In this document: one piece after another, positions 7,121-49,860 of the stretch | Layout of the letters: each line of letters starts with the position of its first letter | How positions within the stretch are numbered: position 1 is the stretch's first letter | Assembly: GCA_048881705.1 (NCBI GenBank) | Contig: JBHLSH010000005.1 | Coordinates: forward strand, 1 to 64,000 | Length of the DNA: 64,000 nucleotides | From: Candidatus Heimdallarchaeota archaeon | Lineage (GTDB): Archaea; Asgardarchaeota; Heimdallarchaeia; Hodarchaeales; Hodarchaeaceae | Direction: 5' to 3' | Notes under the pieces: generated by a model | Databases searched by the model: none | Told to the model about the DNA's origin: nothing | What the model saw: only the letters and a program-made list of their open reading frames with translations | Position numbers and translations under genes: made by a program

Positions 7121-8887
7121 TCAATTCTGGAAATCCTTCAATAATTGATAGATATCTTCTGGATCGTTTGATCTTAAGACCTTCTCTCCTAGAATCTTAC
7201 ATTCTAAATAAGTAATTTCAGTAATAATTTTCTTAGCACGTAGAAGTGAATGTGGTTGCATACTTAATTCATCGATTCCTAATCCTATTAGAAGAGGAAT
7301 CGCCAGAGGTTCACTAGCCAATTCTCCACAAACTCCAACCCATTTTCCATGAGAATGAGCTCCTTCAATAACTCCCTGAATTAATCTGATTACTGAAGGA
7401 TGGTAATGGTCATACAAATAAGCAACTGACTCATTTGTCCTGTCAGTAGCTAGTGTATACTGAGTCAGATCATTGGTTCCAATGCTAAAGAAATCGACAA
7501 AAGGGGCGATAATATCCGCGCAAATAGCTACAGAGGGAACCTCAACCATAATTCCAACTTCTACGGCCCTATTAATCTCGTAACCTTCGTTCTGGAGGTT
7601 TTGCTTTGTAGTCCCCATTAAACGCATTAAGCTACTAACTTCTTTTGCTGTTGTAATCATAGGAAACATTATTTTTAGATTACCGTGGACCGAAGCTCTT
7701 AATGCAGCTCTAATCTGAGTCGTGAGTATCTGTTTAAATTCGCTCTGGGATGCCAGGCGGGTACCTCGAAGCCCCAAGAATGGATTTACCTCTTTAGGGA
7801 GATTAATATAAGCTAGTTCCTTATCTCCCCCTATATCTAAGGTTCGTATAATAACTGGGTATTTTTCCATTCCTTCTAAAAATTTTCTAAAAATTGAGAA
7901 CAATTCCTCTTCTGTTGGAAGGTTTATCCGATTTAAATACATGAATTCCGTTCTAAGAAGACCCACTCCTTCGGCACCGACTTTCATTGCGGAACCTAAA
8001 TCATCTATTGATCCAAGATTTACATTAAGTTGAATTTCATGATTATCTTTTGTTATTGCTCGTACTTCCTTATATCTTTGTAGGAGCTTCTCCTCCTCGG
8101 CATACTGAACTTTTTTAGACTCGTATGATTGGATGGTATCAAGATCGGGATCAATAATGACCTCTCCATTGGAGCCATCAACTACAAGTGTATCAGAGTT
8201 GGAAATAGTTTCTAATAAAGTTGAAGTTCCAGTACCGACCACCGCAGGTATATTAAGAGATCTTGACAATATAACAGCGTGGGAGGTAGGGCCTCCCGTC
8301 TCGGTTGCGATTGCTAAGACCATCGATTTGTTCATTTCAGCTGTATCAGATGGGGTAAGTTCATCAGCTACAATTATCACCGCTTCGTCAAGATCTGACA
8401 GTTCCGAAGTGTATTGATCAAGAAGAGCCTGTAAAATTTGATTTCCAGCATCTTTTATATCCTGGCCTCGTTCCTTGAAATAGTCATCCTCCATTGCCTC
8501 GAATTTTCTTTGCCATTTCTCTGAAACGCTTTTGATGGAGTCTACAAGTTGTATATTATTCTTAATCTTTTCTATAATCTCTGATTGAAAATCCTCGTCC
8601 TCTATCATCAGCATTTGCGCATCAAAAACGCCTGCTTCATCACTACCGATTTCTTCTTCAACTTTAGAAACAATTCGCGACAATCTCTCTAATGCTTTAT
8701 TCGTAGCGTTCTTAAACAGGATTATTGCCTCATTAGGATTAAGATCCTGAAATTCCCCCCCAATTATCATTTGAATATCTGGTGCTTTAAATACTCGTGC
8801 CTTCCCAATTGCAATGCCAGGGGAACCAGGGATCCCGATAATTTTTTTCATTTTGGGCCCAAGTAGTTGATCTTCAATCTTCGCCAA
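7121..8887 (-). CDS. ptsI: PTS Enzyme I (PEP-protein phosphotransferase)
   Basis: GGPTSHAVILSRSL (phospho-His), GVGLLRTEF, RTLDIGGDK, NPFLGLRG, SIGTNDLTQY, GVCGELA. Confidence 0.97.
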   Translation of the reverse strand: MAKIEDQLLGPKMKKIIGIPGSPGIAIGKARVFKAPDIQMIIGGEFQDLNPNEAIILFKNATNKALERLSRIVSKVEEEIGSDEAGVFDAQMLMIEDEDFQSEIIEKIKNNIQLVDSIKSVSEKWQRKFEAMEDDYFKERGQDIKDAGNQILQALLDQYTSELSDLDEAVIIVADELTPSDTAEMNKSMVLAIATETGGPTSHAVILSRSLNIPAVVGTGTSTLLETISNSDTLVVDGSNGEVIIDPDLDTIQSYESKKVQYAEEEKLLQRYKEVRAITKDNHEIQLNVNLGSIDDLGSAMKVGAEGVGLLRTEFMYLNRINLPTEEELFSIFRKFLEGMEKYPVIIRTLDIGGDKELAYINLPKEVNPFLGLRGTRLASQSEFKQILTTQIRAALRASVHGNLKIMFPMITTAKEVSSLMRLMGTTKQNLQNEGYEINRAVEVGIMVEVPSVAICADIIAPFVDFFSIGTNDLTQYTLATDRTNESVAYLYDHYHPSVIRLIQGVIEGAHSHGKWVGVCGELASEPLAIPLLIGLGIDELSMQPHSLLRAKKIITEITYLECKILGEKVLRSNDPEDIYQLLKDFQN

Positions 8888-9146
8888 ATCTATTCTGAAT
8901 TAATTCCCAAAGGACATTCCTTGCTTCTTCTGCATCCGTTCCATCTATAGTGACGATAATTTCATCATTCATGGCTGCACCTAACGCCAAGACACCCAGT
9001 ATTTTCTTAGCATCAACAACTTTGCCGTTTTTTTCAACGGTGATCTTTGAGTCGTATTTTTTGGAGGTTCTAACGAAAATCGCTGCGGGCCGGGCGTGCA
9101 AGCCCACCTTGTTTTTCAAGACCGTGGTAAACTGCAGTTTCGCCAT
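8874..9146 (-). CDS. ptsH: Phosphocarrier protein HPr
   Basis: GLHARPAA (His17); 90 aa; overlaps the ptsI start by 14 nt. Confidence 0.96.
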   Translation of the reverse strand: MAKLQFTTVLKNKVGLHARPAAIFVRTSKKYDSKITVEKNGKVVDAKKILGVLALGAAMNDEIIVTIDGTDAEEARNVLWELIQNRFGED

Positions 9147-9171
9147 AGGTGGTTCGTCTCAGACTTTACTG

Positions 9172-9624
9172 TCATTTTGGAGTAATTAAAGACTTTAAGG
9201 TTTCCTGAATCTCCTCAAAATCGTCGTGTGTTGCTATCTTTTGAATCAGATCAGGTTTACTGAAAACGTTTTCTGTCATGGCTGAAAGATTCGGTACAAC
9301 CATCTCTGGATTCTCAATTGCAAGTAGAAAGACAAGGTGCACAAAAATGCTGACCTCTGGATCCTCCATACACTCCCATTGAATTGGATCCTTGAGAATT
9401 CCGACTGCAATTGCCGATTTCTTTACGTGTTCAGTTTCGGCGTGAGGAATTGCAACATTGTGTGGACCTTCCAGTTCAAGTGCGGTAGGAAATTCCAGCT
9501 CCCGCTTATGAATCGCGTCCTCGTAAGAGTCCATGACATACCCGGTACTGCTAAGATAGCGAACGAGTTCGTGAATAATCTCACGCTTATTCCCTGCAGT
9601 TGATCTTTTTACAAAAATATCCAA
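9172..9624 (-). CDS. gatA: PTS EIIA component (GatA/fructose-mannitol fold)
   Basis: RELEFPTAL and VAIPHAE (phospho-His); TTG start with AGGAG upstream. Confidence 0.88.
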   Translation of the reverse strand: MDIFVKRSTAGNKREIIHELVRYLSSTGYVMDSYEDAIHKRELEFPTALELEGPHNVAIPHAETEHVKKSAIAVGILKDPIQWECMEDPEVSIFVHLVFLLAIENPEMVVPNLSAMTENVFSKPDLIQKIATHDDFEEIQETLKSLITPK

Positions 9625-9806
9625 TTATGCTCTCCTACTTCAGTGATTCACATCGACTAAACTTCTACTCTGACCATTGATTGGCATTCTCTTTCTTATT
9701 TTCATTTTTTATTAAAATTCAGTAGGGAGAAATGTCGGAGACATCATCTGGAGAATGATATCTGATGTATTGCACAATCGCATTTCCTAACAAGATCTGA
9801 ACCAAT

Positions 9807-10247
9807 TTACATTTTACTTCCAAATAACAATACAAAGACTTTTCGTTCACGAGGCTCGTTGTATTCAATGAAGTAAACACGTTGCCATGGACCAAGTACC
9901 AGTTTACCATTTTCAATACCCAAAAAAACCGAATTCCCGATTACCTGTGCTTTCACATGAGATGCAGCGTCTAACGGAGTTTCTTCAGTATGGTGCCAGT
10001 TCCTGGTTTCTGGTATCAATTCCCATAGCACTTCAGAAACATCCATTCCCACCCCCGGATCTGAACCTTCGTTGATAACAACACCTGTGGTAGTATGCAG
10101 GCTATACGCGACCATAAGGCCCGCCTTGATAGGATTTTCTTCACTGAAATCTATAAGGTCCTGGGTGATATCATAATATTCTCCAGCTTTTTTCGTTTTC
10201 ACGACAATGTATCTGGTGAGGAATTCAATATCTGGCATCAGGATCAC
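9807..10247 (-). CDS. yjbQ: YjbQ (UPF0047) family protein
   Basis: SLHTTTGVVINE, AASHVKAQVIG, LVLGPWQRVYFIE. Confidence 0.9.
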   Translation of the reverse strand: MILMPDIEFLTRYIVVKTKKAGEYYDITQDLIDFSEENPIKAGLMVAYSLHTTTGVVINEGSDPGVGMDVSEVLWELIPETRNWHHTEETPLDAASHVKAQVIGNSVFLGIENGKLVLGPWQRVYFIEYNEPRERKVFVLLFGSKM

Positions 10248-10311
10248 TTGTTTTACAGATGGAATAAAAAGAATAGTATAGGTTATTGTGGTTGATTATG
10301 GGCGTCACTTT

Positions 10312-10330
10312 ATAACTCAAATTGAGTTAT
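10312..10330. promoter_or_regulatory. Perfect 9-1-9 inverted repeat ATAACTCAA-A-TTGAGTTAT, candidate operator
   Basis: Read directly from the sequence; lies in the divergent intergenic region between yjbQ and sgcQ. Confidence 0.55.
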
Positions 10331-10462
10331 CTAGTGTGCATAACCTCGTATATTTTTAAAGAAAAGCTCTAACAAAAAAAACAAAATTACCACCTGATTT
10401 GTTCGTCAGGAATAATCTCCGACGGATCCACATTATCAAATTTCATTTAGTTACACACAGTC

Positions 10463-10470
10463 TTATATAA
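10463..10470 (+). promoter_or_regulatory. Candidate archaeal TATA box for sgcQ
   Basis: TTATATAA about 20-25 nt upstream of ATG 10489. Confidence 0.35.
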
Positions 10471-10488
10471 TACTCAAGGCGAACAAAA

Positions 10489-11292
10489 ATGACACTTTTG
10501 AAAGATTTATTCCAAGCTGAAAAGCCCGTTATTGGTATGGTTCACTTCCCACCGCTTCCTAGTACATATGAATACGATGATGTAGCGGGAATGGAAAAAA
10601 TTGTATCTAGTGCTCTTTCCGATATAAAAGCCTTACAAGATGGAGATATCGACGGCTTACTGTTTTGTAATGAAGGGGATCGCCCATATGCCAAAGGAGT
10701 GGACAAAATAATCGCCGCATCAATGGCAGCTGCGATAGGTGAACTGAAAACAGAAATATCCATCCCTTTTGGCGTGGACATTATGTGGGATCCGATTGCG
10801 GCTCTCGCAGTTGCGAAAGCGACTGGAGCTAAATATGTACGTGGAGTATTCACAGGCGCCTTCGCGGGAGATATGGGTTTTTTTGATCCACCGGGCGCGG
10901 AAGCTTTTCGCTATAAAAAGGCAATCGAAGCTTTTGATGTCAAAGTTTTCAGCATTGTAAATGCAGAATTTGCCCATCCCCTGGATAGGCGTTCACTTGC
11001 CCTCATCGCAAAAGGCACCGTGTTTGTTGGAATTGCGGACGCTCTTTGTGTTTCTGGCCCAATGACTGGAATGGAAGCTCGGTTAGAGGAGCTACGAATT
11101 GTAAAAGAAAATTCTATGGGGGCACCTGTCATGATAAATACAGGGGCAAGAAAAGACAATATTTCAAAGCAACTAGATATTGCTGACGGTGTGATTGTTG
11201 GTACAAGTCTTAAATTTGATGGGGACACATGGAAAAATGTTGATCCAAAAAGGGTGGCAGATTTCATGGAGGTTGTAAAAACCAAAAGATGA
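10489..11292 (+). CDS. sgcQ: BtpA/SgcQ family TIM-barrel protein
   Basis: KPVIGMVHFPPLP, NEGDRPY, PFGVDIMWD, DALCVSGPMTG, ADGVIVGTSLKFDG. Confidence 0.92.
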   Translation: MTLLKDLFQAEKPVIGMVHFPPLPSTYEYDDVAGMEKIVSSALSDIKALQDGDIDGLLFCNEGDRPYAKGVDKIIAASMAAAIGELKTEISIPFGVDIMWDPIAALAVAKATGAKYVRGVFTGAFAGDMGFFDPPGAEAFRYKKAIEAFDVKVFSIVNAEFAHPLDRRSLALIAKGTVFVGIADALCVSGPMTGMEARLEELRIVKENSMGAPVMINTGARKDNISKQLDIADGVIVGTSLKFDGDTWKNVDPKRVADFMEVVKTKR

Positions 11293-11441
11293 AAGGAGTT
11301 CGGTCGGACAGTTTACGATAGAAAAGTGATTCTTTATTAGAAAAACTTGAAACTGTGTCTTTTACTCGGTATTTCTTGCGGTTTCCGTTTGAAGTGGCTA
11401 TCTAGAATTTCTAGGTCCATGTTTGTTGGAGTTAATAGGAT

Positions 11442-13202
11442 ATGAACAAGATTCTAAGAATTAATATGACAGATTTGGCTGTAAATTGGGAGGATGTGCC
11501 CAAAAAGTACTCAGAATTAGGCGGAAGAGGTTTGACTTCTAGCCTTATATATGATGAAGTCGATCCAACGTGTGATGCATTGGATTCTCAAAATAAGTTT
11601 GTAGTTGCTCCAGGGTTTATTACAGGAACAAGTGCACCTACATCGGGACGTTTATCGGCTGGAGCGAAGTCTCCCCTAACCGGAACCATCAAGGAAGCAA
11701 ATGCTGGAGGTCTGAGTCCCCAAAAACTAGCACGGCTCGGAATAAAGGCACTGATAATTGAGGGAATGCCTCAATCGAATGATTGGTACAATATTTATAT
11801 CACGAAAGAGAAATGTGAGATCGTTAAGGCCAACGAATATGCTGGAATGGGATTATACAAGCTTATAGAGAGGTTATGGGAAAAGTACCCAAATAAGCCA
11901 GGGATTTTCGGATGTGGTTTAGCCGGTCAAAAATTAATGCTTTCTGCTGGGATTTTTGGAAATAATCCAGACAATACAGATCCAGGTCGGTACGCTGCGA
12001 GAGGTGGACTGGGTGCCGTGCTCGGATCGAAGAGAGTTATTGCGATAGTAGTGGATGATTCTGGTACAACAAGATTGAAAGCTCAAAATCAAGAAATGTT
12101 TGATGCCGGCAGAAAAAAGTTGGTAGAGGGTCTAGTTAAGCATGAAGCCAAAGAAGCTCTCGCAGATTATGGTACGGAAGGATTAATGAACGTCATGAAC
12201 GAATCAGGAGGATTACCCACAAGAAGTTGGCATAGAGGTCATTTCTCAAAGGCAGATAAGATTTCTGGGGAGGTAATTCATGAGCTTGTGGCACGCACGA
12301 AAAAGAAGTTTCCGAAGTCTCAGGCTAGAACTGGTTGGCCGTGTAATCCTGGCTGTGTTATTGCGTGTGCAAATAAAGTCCCGTACCCATTAGATCATAA
12401 AAAGGCAGGAGAAGTTCATGTGTCCACTCTTGAATACGAAACTGCAATGGCGCTAGGGTCTTTGTGTGAAATCGATTCCTTGTATCATTTAGCTGAATTA
12501 AATCGGATTTGTAATGATCTGGGAGTAGATACCATTGAAACAGGGAATACACTGGCATTGGCTATGGAGGCAGGTTTGTTAGAATTTGGCGATGGGTCTG
12601 CTGCGGTGGATTTGTTGAATAAAATCGCATCTGACGAACCAATAGGCCGATTACTTGGTTTGGGGGCCTTAAGATTCGGCCAAGCATATGGAATAAGCAC
12701 GAAAGTTGCCCATGCCAAGGGCCAATCCTTACCTGCATTCGATCCAAGACCACTCAAAGGAATAGGCATAACTTACGCTACAAGTCCCCAAGGAGGAGAT
12801 CATACTGCGGGATACACCATCTTTTCTGAAGTTGAAGGGGTTAATCCTGTGGATCCGATGGATCCCAAAAAAGGTGAAATGTCTCGATTCTATCAATCGT
12901 TCACCGCTTTTATTGACTCAATTGGATATTGCTTGTTTACGGCTTATGCATTATTAGATATTCCATCTGCAATGGAAGGAATGGTTGAAACAGCAAAGGC
13001 GATGCTCAATTTAGATGATTTAGATATTGAAGAATACGGAATGAAAATCCTCAAACTGGAACGTGAATTCAACATGAAAGCTGGATTCACCACGAAACAT
13101 GACAAGATTCCTGAATTCTTTTATGAAATTCCTCTCCCCCCTCATAATGTCATATTTGATGTTCCAAAGGACGAAATAAGAAAAGTGTTTAAAGACGATT
13201 AA
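11442..13202 (+). CDS. aor: Aldehyde:ferredoxin oxidoreductase (W/Mo-pterin AOR family)
   Basis: KSPLTGTIKEANAGG, RGGLGAVLGSK, CNPGCVIAC, EYET, CNDLGVDTI, GGDHTAG. Confidence 0.94.
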   Translation: MNKILRINMTDLAVNWEDVPKKYSELGGRGLTSSLIYDEVDPTCDALDSQNKFVVAPGFITGTSAPTSGRLSAGAKSPLTGTIKEANAGGLSPQKLARLGIKALIIEGMPQSNDWYNIYITKEKCEIVKANEYAGMGLYKLIERLWEKYPNKPGIFGCGLAGQKLMLSAGIFGNNPDNTDPGRYAARGGLGAVLGSKRVIAIVVDDSGTTRLKAQNQEMFDAGRKKLVEGLVKHEAKEALADYGTEGLMNVMNESGGLPTRSWHRGHFSKADKISGEVIHELVARTKKKFPKSQARTGWPCNPGCVIACANKVPYPLDHKKAGEVHVSTLEYETAMALGSLCEIDSLYHLAELNRICNDLGVDTIETGNTLALAMEAGLLEFGDGSAAVDLLNKIASDEPIGRLLGLGALRFGQAYGISTKVAHAKGQSLPAFDPRPLKGIGITYATSPQGGDHTAGYTIFSEVEGVNPVDPMDPKKGEMSRFYQSFTAFIDSIGYCLFTAYALLDIPSAMEGMVETAKAMLNLDDLDIEEYGMKILKLEREFNMKAGFTTKHDKIPEFFYEIPLPPHNVIFDVPKDEIRKVFKDD

Positions 13203-43287: not shown

Positions 43288-44886
43288 ATGTCTAAGACCG
43301 TATGGACAATGACAGTAGACAGCCAAGATGACGCAATTCAAATCCTTTATTTCAAGGGTGAGCACTGTGCCCCGTGTAAACCCGTGGAGAAGCATTTGAA
43401 ACGGATAGTTGAAACTAGTCAAGGAAAAGCCCTTATGACGACCATTGACACGGATAAACATGCTGAAATTGCTTCTCGATACGGTGTCAAACAGGTTCCT
43501 CACGTCTTGTTCAATGAGGAGATAGTGTTAACTGCGGGACAAGCTAGTGGAATGGTGGGTTTCGGTGAATTTGACCAGTATGATTTATTCAACTACCTAT
43601 TTAACAAGCTGATTGAGGCCGGGGTTAAAGCGAGCGAAGCAGAACGTGATCGCTGGCGAAAGTTATCGATTATAACAGTATCTGAAAGGTTGATAGATGT
43701 AGAAGGAAGTGGTATTGTAACAAGACCCTCAGTAGGAGATTACGTTCATATCGGGCATCTTCAATCAATCGTAACGTCTTTACTAGCTATTAATCCTTCA
43801 GCCAAAACATACCTATTTCGTGCGGGAGAGATGGCTGGAAAATTCGGTGCAGCGCAATCTTGGCTAGGACGCTACAACCCGAACATTATGTCGACCAATC
43901 GGATGGGTGACCGATTCAAGGAGGTGTTGAAGGGCTTTCGAGTTCTTTATGGTAAGAATCCCATGGAATCAAAGGTAGCCTCGGAGTTGAACTACACCCA
44001 AACCTCTCCATATCACGCTACGCTTGAGATGATGGGTTCTGCTCATGCAGTTCGGAACTCCGAAATTGGGCAAGATGTATGTGGGTTCTTGGCTGGAGAG
44101 ATTTCAGGATTGCTAGAAGTCACCTTGGGGGAAAAAGCGGCGGTGGTTGAGACTAAATGTTGGGGCCTTGGGCACGATCATTGTGAATTCGATATACGGC
44201 TGAATGAAAGCTCAGATCACTATTTAGTCCCCTTCTCCAATGCTAAGGAATTTTTTGGAACTGATGATCGTCTTCGTTTTGAGCTTTCCCTAGCTGAAAT
44301 CTCGAGAAATATGTTTGACTCGATCTTACGCCGACCTTACGGACTTTTACGACCAGATATTGGGGACTACATCCATATTTCTTCTCTCCAACACATTCTA
44401 ACCTCATTGAAGTTTTCGGATCCATTCAATTCTACGCTTCTCTCGTATGCGGGATTACATTATGGACAGATTCTCGAGGACGTAGGCATTATTTCCAGGA
44501 TTATGACGCGTCGCAATCTCAAATACTCTTTTCCTATGGAATTTGATCAGGCATGTGAGGTTCTTGGATATTACTTCAGCACACCTGGAATGATTTATGC
44601 ACGTATCCACGCAGATATGACCGTTGAGATGGAGGATGATGAAACAGCCATCTTTAAGATGTGGGAAAGCGCCGCCACTTCTGGTATTGATCTTTCGACG
44701 GTTGATTTATCCGCGCTATTTCCTGGAACGGAAAAACCCGCTACCATAAACACATTGGATGATTTCATTGCGGGGTTTATTAACGGTCGATTGGACTTAT
44801 TGGTTGAGGAAGATGTGATTGTTCATGAAGCACGGTGTCAGGCTAGCGGTCACCCTTATTGCGAATTCGTAGCGGAGCTAGATTGA
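43288..44886 (+). CDS. Thioredoxin-like domain fused to two V4R domains
   Basis: HCAPC and VPHV (Trx); two repeats starting RPxxGDYxHI and ending C-x(7)-CEF. Confidence 0.85.
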   Translation: MSKTVWTMTVDSQDDAIQILYFKGEHCAPCKPVEKHLKRIVETSQGKALMTTIDTDKHAEIASRYGVKQVPHVLFNEEIVLTAGQASGMVGFGEFDQYDLFNYLFNKLIEAGVKASEAERDRWRKLSIITVSERLIDVEGSGIVTRPSVGDYVHIGHLQSIVTSLLAINPSAKTYLFRAGEMAGKFGAAQSWLGRYNPNIMSTNRMGDRFKEVLKGFRVLYGKNPMESKVASELNYTQTSPYHATLEMMGSAHAVRNSEIGQDVCGFLAGEISGLLEVTLGEKAAVVETKCWGLGHDHCEFDIRLNESSDHYLVPFSNAKEFFGTDDRLRFELSLAEISRNMFDSILRRPYGLLRPDIGDYIHISSLQHILTSLKFSDPFNSTLLSYAGLHYGQILEDVGIISRIMTRRNLKYSFPMEFDQACEVLGYYFSTPGMIYARIHADMTVEMEDDETAIFKMWESAATSGIDLSTVDLSALFPGTEKPATINTLDDFIAGFINGRLDLLVEEDVIVHEARCQASGHPYCEFVAELD

Positions 44887-48246: not shown

Positions 48247-49860
48247 ATGGCAACAAAATTACATCCAACAACACAATTCTATCTGTTTCTAGCCCTTCTT
48301 ATAGGGGTTGTTATTGGTTCTGGAGGAGGCTTTATCATGTTTTCAATAGTCAACCCTAACCAACCTGCTAGAGAATCAGTGACTTTTGATATTGGAGCTC
48401 ATCAATGGGGCTTTGATCCCAATAGAATTGAGGTAAAGCTCGACGATCACGTCGTCTTGAGATTTTCGAGTAATGCAACAACGGAACCTGCTTACACAAG
48501 ACACTCAATCATTATTCAGGCCTATAATATTAGTGTTGATTTACCTGTTGGTCAGATTACAGTTGTTGAATTTGATGCTACTATCCCAGGAGAATTTCTA
48601 GGTGAATGTGGTATCTTTTGTGGGCGAGATCATGCAGCTATGTCTATGACGATAGTTGTAAGCGGATCTGGGGAAGATATTCCTGAACAGGATTTACAAC
48701 CACTCACCCAACTTAGCCAAGGTGTTTCGGCTGGAAGTTGGAACAACTCTGACGTGATGGTCATAGTCGAAAGAGAAGCTCGAGCAATATCATTTATTGA
48801 TGGGAGCACCAATACTTATCTCGGAAGACTGTCCGGAATTGGCTATCAACCTCATACAGTTGTTTTCTCTAGTAATTTAACCTATGGCTACATCATCGGA
48901 CGAGGGGGATGGTTTGTGAAATTCGGTTTGGATGATTTTCAAGCTAAAGGGTGGATAAAGGTCGGCACATCAAGCAGGGGAACCGCAATTAGTAACGATG
49001 ACAACTATGTACTGATAAGTAACTACGAACCTTCTAGTTTTGTAATAGTCGATACGAGAACCATGGAAATTGCCAAAGATTACCAAATCCCGATCCCCTA
49101 CGATGAAAACGGAACTACGGAAGGATCCCGCGTTGCATCGATCATTGATACGCCGAACAACTTGATGGTGGTAGCAATGAAAGATCTAGGTGAAGTATGG
49201 GTAATTAATATGTCAGAACCGAATTTCCCCGTCACAAAGATATTTTACGGTGTTGGAGAGGTTCTTCATGACGCCTTTTTAACTGAAGACGGACGTTATT
49301 ACTTCCTAGCTAGCCAGGGGTCCAATTGGATTTGGGTTCTCGATACGGAGACCTTAACAGAGGTAACACGGATTCCTACAGGAGAAAAACCACATCCAGG
49401 TCCAGGGGCATTATGGGGTGATCTGGCCTTTTCCCCATCTGTTGGTGAAGGAAGATTAAACATCTGGAATACCACCTCATTTACGATGCATAGGAATATT
49501 ACACACGGTGGTCCTGGATTGTTTATTCGATCATACTCCAGAAATGCTTCCTATCCTTATGTTTGGTGGGATACCATTCTATCGTCAAACCCTGTTGAAA
49601 ACAGACTAATCCACGTCCTTGATGCAAGAACAATAGATGATCCTACTCCTCTGATATACGATCTAGATGCAGGAAATGGATCCCTTCATCCTGAGTTCAC
49701 CTATAATGGAAAATATGTCTATGTATCACTTTGGCACGAAAGTAAAGTCCTTGTATACGATGCTTACAATTTCAATGATGGTCCCATCACTTCATTTATT
49801 ATTACAACGCCAACAGGGATCTTTAATGCCGGTTTACGTGTCGAGGAAGTAGGATTGTAG
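48247..49860 (+). CDS. Membrane-anchored CuA-cupredoxin / heme d1 (NirS-type) beta-propeller fusion
   Basis: TM at about aa 11-35; CuA ligands H86, C121, C125, H129, M132; d1-domain motifs QPH, RVASII, LHDA, PHPG, TPTGIFN. Confidence 0.85.
   Translation: MATKLHPTTQFYLFLALLIGVVIGSGGGFIMFSIVNPNQPARESVTFDIGAHQWGFDPNRIEVKLDDHVVLRFSSNATTEPAYTRHSIIIQAYNISVDLPVGQITVVEFDATIPGEFLGECGIFCGRDHAAMSMTIVVSGSGEDIPEQDLQPLTQLSQGVSAGSWNNSDVMVIVEREARAISFIDGSTNTYLGRLSGIGYQPHTVVFSSNLTYGYIIGRGGWFVKFGLDDFQAKGWIKVGTSSRGTAISNDDNYVLISNYEPSSFVIVDTRTMEIAKDYQIPIPYDENGTTEGSRVASIIDTPNNLMVVAMKDLGEVWVINMSEPNFPVTKIFYGVGEVLHDAFLTEDGRYYFLASQGSNWIWVLDTETLTEVTRIPTGEKPHPGPGALWGDLAFSPSVGEGRLNIWNTTSFTMHRNITHGGPGLFIRSYSRNASYPYVWWDTILSSNPVENRLIHVLDARTIDDPTPLIYDLDAGNGSLHPEFTYNGKYVYVSLWHESKVLVYDAYNFNDGPITSFIITTPTGIFNAGLRVEEVGL

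Follow-up and report, generated by a model that had tools for sequence, protein, structure and literature searches.

The 64,000-nucleotide stretch of DNA analysed here (the window) comprises positions 1 to 64,000 of contig JBHLSH010000005.1 (contig C5) in the genome assembly GCA_048881705.1 of a Candidatus Heimdallarchaeota archaeon; the assembly has a size of 3.96 Mb in 155 contigs, with a completeness of 90.9% and a contamination of 7.5%. The window contains an open reading frame, uninterrupted by internal stop codons, whose product combines an N-terminal transmembrane helix, a cupredoxin with the ligand set of a CuA centre, and an eight-bladed propeller of the Cytochrom_D1 type found in NirS, NirN and NirF (the CuA::D1 protein, Table 1). 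A profile search of the host genome with PF02239 found no other copy. A preliminary description, made from the letters of the window alone, had read the gene as encoding a copper/haem-d1 hybrid nitrite (or O2) reductase, with CuA in place of the cytochrome c domain of cytochrome cd1.

Table 1. Features of the CuA::D1 gene and its product, with positions in the window
Feature	Position	Strand	Basis
CuA::D1 gene: transmembrane anchor, CuA cupredoxin and D1-type eight-bladed propeller; 537 amino acids plus stop codon	48247..49860	+	List of open reading frames, translation
N-terminal transmembrane helix, residues 7–34, single-pass anchor	48265..48348	+	Hydrophobic stretch in translation, AlphaFold2 helix 7–34
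Cupredoxin domain, residues 44–139, with CuA-type binuclear copper ligand set H86, C121, C125, H129, M132	48376..48663	+	Profile and PDB matches, alignment
CuA ligand loop C121-x3-C125-x3-H129-x2-M132	48607..48642	+	Translation
Eight-bladed Cytochrom_D1 (NirS/NirN/NirF-type) propeller, residues 166–528	48742..49830	+	PF02239, E 1.7e-58
C-terminal tail GLRVEEVGL	49831..49857	+	phmmer alignment to 6tv2
Terminator-like hairpin TGGCTCG/CGAGCCA followed by T-runs, 20 nt past the stop codon	49880..49913	+	Read by eye

Membrane anchor and CuA domain

The transmembrane helix described earlier was recovered both as a hydrophobic stretch in the translation and as a helix in the AlphaFold2 model, and the homologues have hydrophobic N-termini at the equivalent position of the alignment. 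The model, based on a 49-row alignment, reached a mean predicted local distance difference test score (pLDDT) of 92.2 and a predicted template modelling score of 0.83; the helix of residues 7–34 is followed by a beta-sandwich at residues 44–139, with pLDDT of about 90–95, and by the propeller from about residue 170. The domains of a protein anchored in this way would be expected to face outward. A motif search of the 537 residues revealed no CxxCH, in agreement with the preliminary description.

The full CuA ligand set was likewise confirmed. All five residues are present in the translation and invariant in an alignment of 13 homologues, and the pattern C.{3}C.{3}H.{2}M occurs in all CuA::D1 homologues. 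In the domain scan proposed earlier, the Pfam models Cupredoxin_1 (24.8 against a cut-off of 27) and COX2 (21.6 against 22) matched residues 31–136 slightly below their cut-offs, while the PF02239 match was strong; the scan of the host genome placed a PF00116 match at 48493–48654. Among NCBIfam models, the matches of residues 47–138 were to the CuA ends of clade III L-NosZ, CoxB and further NosZ models, with scores far under the whole-protein cut-offs throughout; the best-scoring model for the CuA domain, L-NosZ, reached 59.7 bits against a cut-off of 700, with a good match at its CuA end only. PDB sequences matching the N-terminal domain were the CuA domains of oxidase subunit II (E 3e-9 to 7e-6). 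The spacing of 35 residues between the first His and the first Cys of the set is presumably the same as that in the CuA domain of Thermus ba3 oxidase (His114/Cys149). Given this ligand set, the domain would be predicted to bind binuclear CuA copper.

The cupredoxin fold and the H...C-x3-C-x3-H-x2-M ligands are shared with COX2 and with the CuA domain of NosZ, including clade III L-NosZ, and by analogy the role of electron entry may be shared as well. NosZ likewise couples CuA with a catalytic propeller. However, the partner of CuA in the Heimdallarchaeota protein is neither COX1 nor the seven-bladed CuZ propeller, and the order of domains is reversed relative to NosZ, in which CuA is C-terminal; the protein thus has neither a seven-bladed propeller with CuZ His ligands nor a C-terminal CuA domain. 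The CuA-type cupredoxin does occupy the place that the cytochrome c domain has in NirS and NirN, as had been suggested.

A sister species, represented by a metagenome-assembled genome (MAG) labelled Candidatus Thorarchaeota, carries a fully syntenic orthologue that is 94% identical and in which all metal and haem ligands are unchanged. The gene is under strong purifying selection: between the two species, at a dS of about 0.58, the ratio of nonsynonymous to synonymous substitution rates (dN/dS) is 0.049 for the gene as a whole, with values of 0.086 in the CuA domain and 0.038 in the propeller. Since the features of this architecture are retained in relatives at 40–57% identity and dN/dS relative to the sister species is 0.05, the architecture is real and a chance origin is excluded. 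Contamination was considered and rejected: the GC content of the contig equals that of the genome, the contig carries archaeal genes, and it is syntenic with the contig of the sister species.

Pocket residues and position in the NirS/NirN/NirF superfamily

The propeller was matched to the d1 domain of NirS in the preliminary description, and the PF02239 hit, the structural model and the Foldseek search agree with that assignment at the level of the fold. The closest PDB sequences are NirF (6tv2, E 4.9e-36) and NirN (6rtd, 2.9e-34), followed by NirS (about 4e-18). Foldseek ranked NirF 6tv2, NirN 6rtd and NirS 6tpo/1nir at the top, with E-values of 1e-27 to 1e-25, and the next fold was a YVTN S-layer propeller (E 7e-18); the TM-score was 0.85 on NirF and 0.62–0.64 on NirS.

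The residues listed for the pocket are R176, H203, R219, R244, R295, H341, D342, H383, R428 and H481. The motifs QPH (203), RVASII, LHDA (341), PHPG (383) and TPTGIFN, all named earlier, are found in the propeller, and their equivalence with NirS was borne out by the alignment. In the alignment, H203 takes the place of the axial His shared by NirS, NirN and NirF, while H341 and H383 fall on the two distal catalytic residues of Pseudomonas aeruginosa NirS, His327 and His369 (numbering according to PMC8756737 and PMC7278500), the pair being spaced 42 positions apart in both proteins. The three His residues are therefore those that align with the axial and distal His of NirS, and not residues that point away from the haem pocket. 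R176 and R219 correspond to NirS Arg156/Arg198 and to NirF R21/R65, which bind acetate or propionate groups (PMC7278500; bioRxiv 10.1101/2020.01.13.904656), and R244 corresponds to the arginine that touches ring B in NirS and NirN and is replaced by Ile in NirF.

In a residue table of the distal motifs, the Heimdallarchaeota protein has LHDAF and PHPGPG, compared with LHDG(F/W) and PHPG(R/P)G in bona fide NirS, LDDF and PHLGSG in NirN, and P(Y/F)DAL and PH(L/M/F)xxW in NirF. The distal signature is therefore NirS-like. The C-terminal tail, on the other hand, bears out the earlier remark that it recalls NirF/NirN: R531 aligns with NirF R372 in the phmmer alignment to 6tv2, and R372 is the dihydro-haem d1-binding arginine of NirF (bioRxiv 10.1101/2020.01.13.904656). 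R531, E534 and G536 are invariant in the propeller alignment. The pocket residues listed above, together with R531 of the tail, are invariant in 23 propellers from Asgard archaea, Poseidoniales and Patescibacteria that share 38–62% identity. Judged by these alignments, the predicted pocket is a mosaic of NirS-type catalytic and NirF-type binding residues and resembles one suited to a polycarboxylated tetrapyrrole; the model and the alignments together suggest that a tetrapyrrole would be bound.

Only 47 matches with an E-value of at most 1e-30 were found among 1.8 billion cluster representatives. To place the propeller, the envelopes of 72 propellers were aligned with MAFFT and a quick, unrooted maximum-likelihood tree (LG+G4) was built, with NirS, NirF and NirN of Pseudomonas mandelii, taken from an annotated plasmid, as references. 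The clades of NirS (100%), NirN (100%) and NirF (99%) were well supported, and the propeller of the CuA::D1 protein fell outside all three. Its nearest companions are seven other CuA fusions (97%), joined next by P0014, a fusion of a multicopper oxidase with a D1 propeller (MCO::D1, 99%), and after that by 14 cytochrome-b5::D1 proteins (96%). In this unrooted tree the resulting group of 23 CuA, MCO and b5 fusions sits on the NirF side of a 99% split. Membership of the NirS clade was consequently not supported; the possibility raised earlier, that the propeller would cluster with NirF/NirN, proved right as to the side of the split, but not as to membership of either clade.

The comparison with the named families leads to the same position. 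NirS (EC 1.7.2.1; P. aeruginosa 1nir, P. pantotrophus 1aof) has the same eight-bladed d1 propeller with LHD and PHPG motifs, the same axial His (His182, equivalent to H203), the same distal pair and the Arg156/Arg198 equivalents, and its electron-transfer domain is likewise fused N-terminally. However, NirS carries cytochrome c, while the Heimdallarchaeota protein carries CuA, has no CxxCH and is membrane-anchored; the two are only about 25% identical, and the host has no pathway to haem d1 or any other tetrapyrrole. NirF and NirN are the best matches in both sequence and fold; NirN also has a fused electron-transfer domain, and NirF is membrane-anchored in some species. Nevertheless, NirF has Tyr/Phe and NirN has Asp where the CuA::D1 protein has H341, their second motifs are PHLEGW and PHLGSG rather than PHPGPG, and their genes lie in nir operons beside the d1 pathway, unlike the gene studied here. 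The protein lacks the cytochrome c domain, the LDDF and PHLGSG motifs and the clade membership of NirN, and it also differs from NirF, which consists of a propeller only, has PYDAL and PHLEGW, belongs to the NirF clade and is encoded next to d1 genes. The b5::D1 fusions of Patescibacteria and MCO::D1 P0014 belong to sister clades (96–99%) with the same invariant pocket and with hosts lacking HemB, but with a different electron-transfer module.

Other CuA::D1 fusions (P0011-13; P0129/136/148; P0139) are located elsewhere in the tree; therefore the combination of CuA and propeller has, on this topology, arisen or been reshuffled at least twice. The fusion partners of D1 propellers include CuA, cytochrome b5, cytochrome c and a multicopper oxidase of two domains. 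That the propeller is constant while these modules are interchangeable argues that it holds a redox-active site into which electrons must be fed or from which they must be drawn off, and the pattern is what would be expected if the catalytic part stays the same and the site of electron entry can be exchanged.

Tetrapyrrole supply and possible functions

Searches of the 91%-complete host genome with profile models revealed nothing above cut-off for HemB, HemC and NirJ, and no tblastn match was found there for Pseudomonas NirD, NirL, NirG, NirH and NirE. The caveat that no haem d1 biosynthesis genes flank the gene is thus correct at the locus and extends to the genome, and the absence of the pathway counts against the earlier proposal of a haem-d1 enzyme. 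The genome also contains COX1 and COX2 (contig C94), haem O synthase CtaB above cut-off (C53) and a short CtaA (C9). Since these genes are present while HemB and HemC are absent, the gene content implies that the host needs haem and would therefore have to import it. The host, an Asgard archaeon, is capable of aerobic life; within its genus the distribution of COX1 is uneven, with about half of the genomes having it.

This deficiency is shared by its relatives. Among 21 further genomes from the genus, a single one yielded HemB and the closed ones did not, although the same search detected it in other Asgard families. The CuA::D1 gene is present in 3 of 61 relatives, all three with COX1 and without HemB; no tetrapyrrole route was found in two carrier relatives of the host either, and HemB was not found in the 94%-complete genome of the sister species that carries the orthologue. 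Related propellers were identified in 36 species genomes, including those of Poseidoniales, a Thermofilaceae MAG, many Patescibacteria of 0.6–1.1 Mb and Dehalococcoidales, and HemB is absent from 34 of them. The remaining two cases concern a 1.1-kb contig of a KSB1 MAG and a gammaproteobacterial match with 28% identity. Although related genomes in this count are not independent and Patescibacteria dominate it, the pattern recurs in at least five lineages that are separate from one another. The carrier lineages have been independently reported as haem auxotrophs (bioRxiv 10.1101/2021.01.11.426183).

As neither haem d1 nor any other tetrapyrrole can be made by the host, the designation of a copper/haem-d1 nitrite reductase cannot be accepted as written. 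What stands of it is the CuA entry site, the single-helix anchor and the NirS-type distal signature; what does not is the placement with NirS and a cofactor made by the host. The explanation that we favour, and to which we would give about an even chance, is that the CuA::D1 protein faces outward and works as an oxidoreductase, CuA handing electrons to an iron tetrapyrrole that is imported and has a NirS-like acid–base pair above the iron. Besides the invariant ligands, the modelled fold and the strong purifying selection, this reading is favoured by a host that already depends on salvaged haem, by COX1 in all three carriers, and by the COX operon near the gene in Poseidoniales and the CuA-rich Thermofilaceae locus described below. 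With a single helix fixing it to the outer face of the membrane, the enzyme would accept electrons from the respiratory chain at the binuclear CuA centre and pass them to an iron tetrapyrrole, either haem b or a d1-type isobacteriochlorin, held in the middle of the propeller by His203 and the ring of arginines. The His341/His383 pair would then bind and protonate a small oxidised substrate above the iron. As the host makes no tetrapyrroles, the cofactor would have to be exogenous and acquired from the surroundings, like the haem that its cytochrome oxidase needs. By analogy with cytochrome cd1, the most likely substrates would be nitrite, reduced to NO, or O2.

Several observations weigh against this explanation. 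Overall sequence similarity and the tree both place the propeller closer to NirF and NirN, and these proteins process tetrapyrroles rather than use them. NirS Arg372, which binds a d1 carboxylate from the PHPGRG motif, is replaced by Pro386, the deep members of the NirS clade P0161 and P0164 having PHPGPG as well. No functionally related genes surround the CuA::D1 gene in the window, and no conserved partners were found beside its closest homologues, P0003, P0004 and P0014. The host genome contains no nitric oxide reductase, its single PF00115 match being COX1, and no plastocyanin/azurin-type donor, since no PF00127 blue copper protein was found in it. Salvage of haem d1 is not known, and neither is a source of the cofactor. 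Finally, if the cofactor were haem b, the ferrous form would hold NO tightly and make a poor nitrite reductase (PMC7278500).

The affinity to NirF and NirN would be accounted for if the protein were an enzyme of tetrapyrrole salvage or remodelling, in which the bound tetrapyrrole is the substrate and the fused redox domain removes electrons from it, so that a polycarboxylated tetrapyrrole of the environment is made importable or usable outside the auxotrophic cell. We regard this as the main rival explanation, though with a clearly lower probability. The model for it is NirN, which carries a fused haem c and dehydrogenates dihydro-haem d1, and NirF, whose partner is the cytochrome NirC; a finding of 2026 describes NirF and NirC as an oxidoreductase pair acting on a bound tetrapyrrole (PMC13168839). 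In line with such a role are the sequence and fold matches, the position on the NirF side of the split, the match of R531 to the NirF-specific R372, the five to six invariant pocket arginines, which would suit a tetrapyrrole with more than two carboxylates, and the absence of HemB in 34 of the 36 carrier genomes across lineages already known for haem auxotrophy. However, the distal signature, with His341 and PHPGPG, is NirS-like and has neither the Asp of NirN nor the Tyr/Phe of NirF, no transporter or haem-handling gene is linked at this locus or at those of the closest homologues, and salvage chemistry of this kind is not known. The dominance of Patescibacteria among the carriers also means that the link to auxotrophy may be largely taxonomic. 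With a similarly low probability, the whole clade could be a "borrowed tetrapyrrole" system of organisms that do not make haem, its members being fused to CuA in Asgard archaea and Poseidoniales, to a multicopper oxidase in another archaeon and to cytochrome b5 in Patescibacteria. Either an exogenous tetrapyrrole, d1-type or otherwise polycarboxylated, would be captured and serve as a pirated catalytic cofactor outside the cell, or scavenged tetrapyrroles would be remodelled by oxidation, in the manner of NirN/NirF, into usable haem.

Less probable still is a haem-free metalloenzyme in which H203, H341, H383 and H481 bind copper or iron directly, following the logic of NosZ. It would suit hosts unable to make tetrapyrroles, the combination of CuA with a propeller is the plan of NosZ, the best-scoring model for the CuA domain is L-NosZ at its CuA end, and the CuA-bearing clade includes a multicopper oxidase fusion. 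Yet a bare metal site would not explain why the residues that bind tetrapyrrole carboxylates in NirS and NirF are all invariant. Furthermore, there are four His residues instead of the seven of CuZ, the L-NosZ score is a small fraction of its cut-off and the propeller is of the eight-bladed D1 type, and the sister clade carries cytochrome b5, which itself requires haem.

We consider it very unlikely that the protein is a true CuA-d1 nitrite reductase supplied with haem d1 by the host itself, through genes missing from the assembly or an unknown pathway. The NirS-type catalytic residues, the automatic JGI name of homologues, nitrite reductase (NO-forming), and the CuA::D1 gene P0139, whose location in a cluster of tetrapyrrole-type genes (see below) indicates that this type of enzyme probably exists, speak for it; against it are the failure to find HemB, HemC, NirE, NirDLGH and NirJ in the genome, the near-absence of HemB throughout the genus in a search that does detect it in other Asgard families, and the position outside the NirS clade. 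A functionless, decaying relic of a transferred nir gene, to which the patchy distribution among relatives and the absence of a cofactor pathway might point, is excluded for practical purposes by the low dN/dS, the intact ligands and the conserved synteny, in contrast to the visibly frameshifted copy on a Natrinema plasmid.

In the literature that was searched, no description of a CuA::D1 or b5::D1 enzyme was found. The closest report concerns cupredoxin-C1-C2-NirS chimeras of Chloroflexi (PMC8756737, Microbiologyopen 2022), in which a copper domain and a NirS-type propeller are combined in one polypeptide, encoded outside nir operons. However, in these chimeras the cupredoxin and the propeller are still separated by one or two cytochrome c domains, while CuA is the sole electron entry of the Heimdallarchaeota protein, and their place is inside or beside proteobacterial NirS, which is not true of the latter. 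One Heimdallarchaeota paper lists "NirS", by automatic annotation only. Homologues are labelled in databases as "cytochrome D1 domain-containing", NirF, YncE or NirS, and automatic pipelines assign them to NirS/K15864 or NirF; surveys that credit genomes of Asgard archaea, Marine Group II or the candidate phyla radiation with the reduction of nitrite to NO may over-read such labels.

The main interest of the CuA::D1 protein lies in the paradox of its cofactor: a strictly conserved d1-type pocket under strong purifying selection recurs in five or more lineages without tetrapyrrole synthesis (Asgard archaea, Poseidoniales, Thermofilaceae, Patescibacteria and Dehalococcoidales), which points to uncultured but abundant microbes that either salvage the cofactor or remodel tetrapyrroles. 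If the tetrapyrrole is indeed borrowed, haem auxotrophy would have a previously unknown link to the NirS/NirN/NirF superfamily, and "nirS" calls in the carrier lineages would be no sign of denitrification. As an oxidoreductase of the kind favoured here, the protein would add a third wiring of the cd1-type active site, with CuA in place of haem c, in parallel with NosZ and the haem-copper oxidases.

Related fusions and neighbouring genes

The CuA::D1 protein P0139 (639 amino acids) is encoded on contig CAYYBS010000001.1 of GCA_964469475.1 (locus L061:4994-21679), which is probably haloarchaeal, having 60% GC and an HTH_10/DmsR-type regulator. The genes of the cluster are co-directional: SCO1/SenC, a redoxin and a 565-amino acid multicopper oxidase are encoded upstream of P0139, and two NirF/N-like propellers, two NirJ/AhbC-type radical SAM enzymes, HemA, a CbiX chelatase, SUMT and two fused AhbA/B-type sirohaem decarboxylases downstream. 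As the scores of the radical SAM enzymes do not tell NirJ from AhbC, the cluster is proposed only as a candidate pathway to haem d1. Judging from its gene content, the CuA-d1 nitrite reductase envisaged for the Heimdallarchaeota gene is probably realised at this locus instead, as a candidate self-sufficient system, and the sirohaem-branch cluster makes this CuA::D1 gene a tractable system for a genuine enzyme of this kind. A frameshifted and unannotated propeller of the P0139 type is located on the Natrinema thermotolerans plasmid CP031304.1 (L010:7914-9106); it is 40–52% identical to P0139, P0151 and P0154, and no tetrapyrrole genes were found near it.

Another CuA::D1 gene, P0011, belongs to a clade different from that of the Heimdallarchaeota gene and is found in the Thermofilaceae MAG on contig JALURH010000038.1 (L005:941-6734 / L028:153-5904). 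It is followed by an open reading frame of 122 codons, a gene for a 642-amino acid CuA::NapH-like polyferredoxin membrane protein and a gene for a 140-amino acid CuA cupredoxin, and preceded by hemerythrin and PNPOx-like genes. From the predicted products, the locus looks like an electron path from quinol to CuA, an all-CuA relay.

In Poseidoniales, the CuA::D1 gene lies 1–5 kb from a COX3-COX2-COX1 operon and is flanked by a CopD-like gene or a multicopper-oxidase-like gene. In one Poseidoniales-type MAG (L026:4305-4799 and 8424-12261), a gene for a CopD-like membrane protein flanks CuA::D1 and COX3-COX2-COX1 is about 1.2 kb away; COX1 of this locus has an N-terminal "choice-of-anchor V" domain.

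P0014 (L065:1596-3836) consists of a two-domain multicopper oxidase (Cu-oxidase_3 and Cu-oxidase_2, weakly NirK-like) fused to a D1 propeller; its context is archaeal, with a PCNA gene adjoining. The cytochrome-b5::D1 proteins (L007/L008:10001-12085 and loci L029-L057) number in the hundreds, have about 694 amino acids with an unannotated N-terminal region of about 230, and are encoded by Patescibacteria of 0.6–1.1 Mb without HemB. At L007/L008 the gene is located between cell-wall and division genes (mraZ to murE) and housekeeping genes.

In the window, the CuA::D1 gene seems to form its own transcription unit, with a 326-nt AT-rich spacer upstream of it and the hairpin with T-runs past its stop codon, both read by eye. 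The neighbouring genes encode geranylgeranyl reductase, phosphoglucose isomerase and an M16 peptidase. About 3.4 kb upstream, at 43288-44886 of the plus strand, a 532-amino acid protein is encoded that combines an N-terminal thioredoxin domain with two V4R domains, an unusual pairing.

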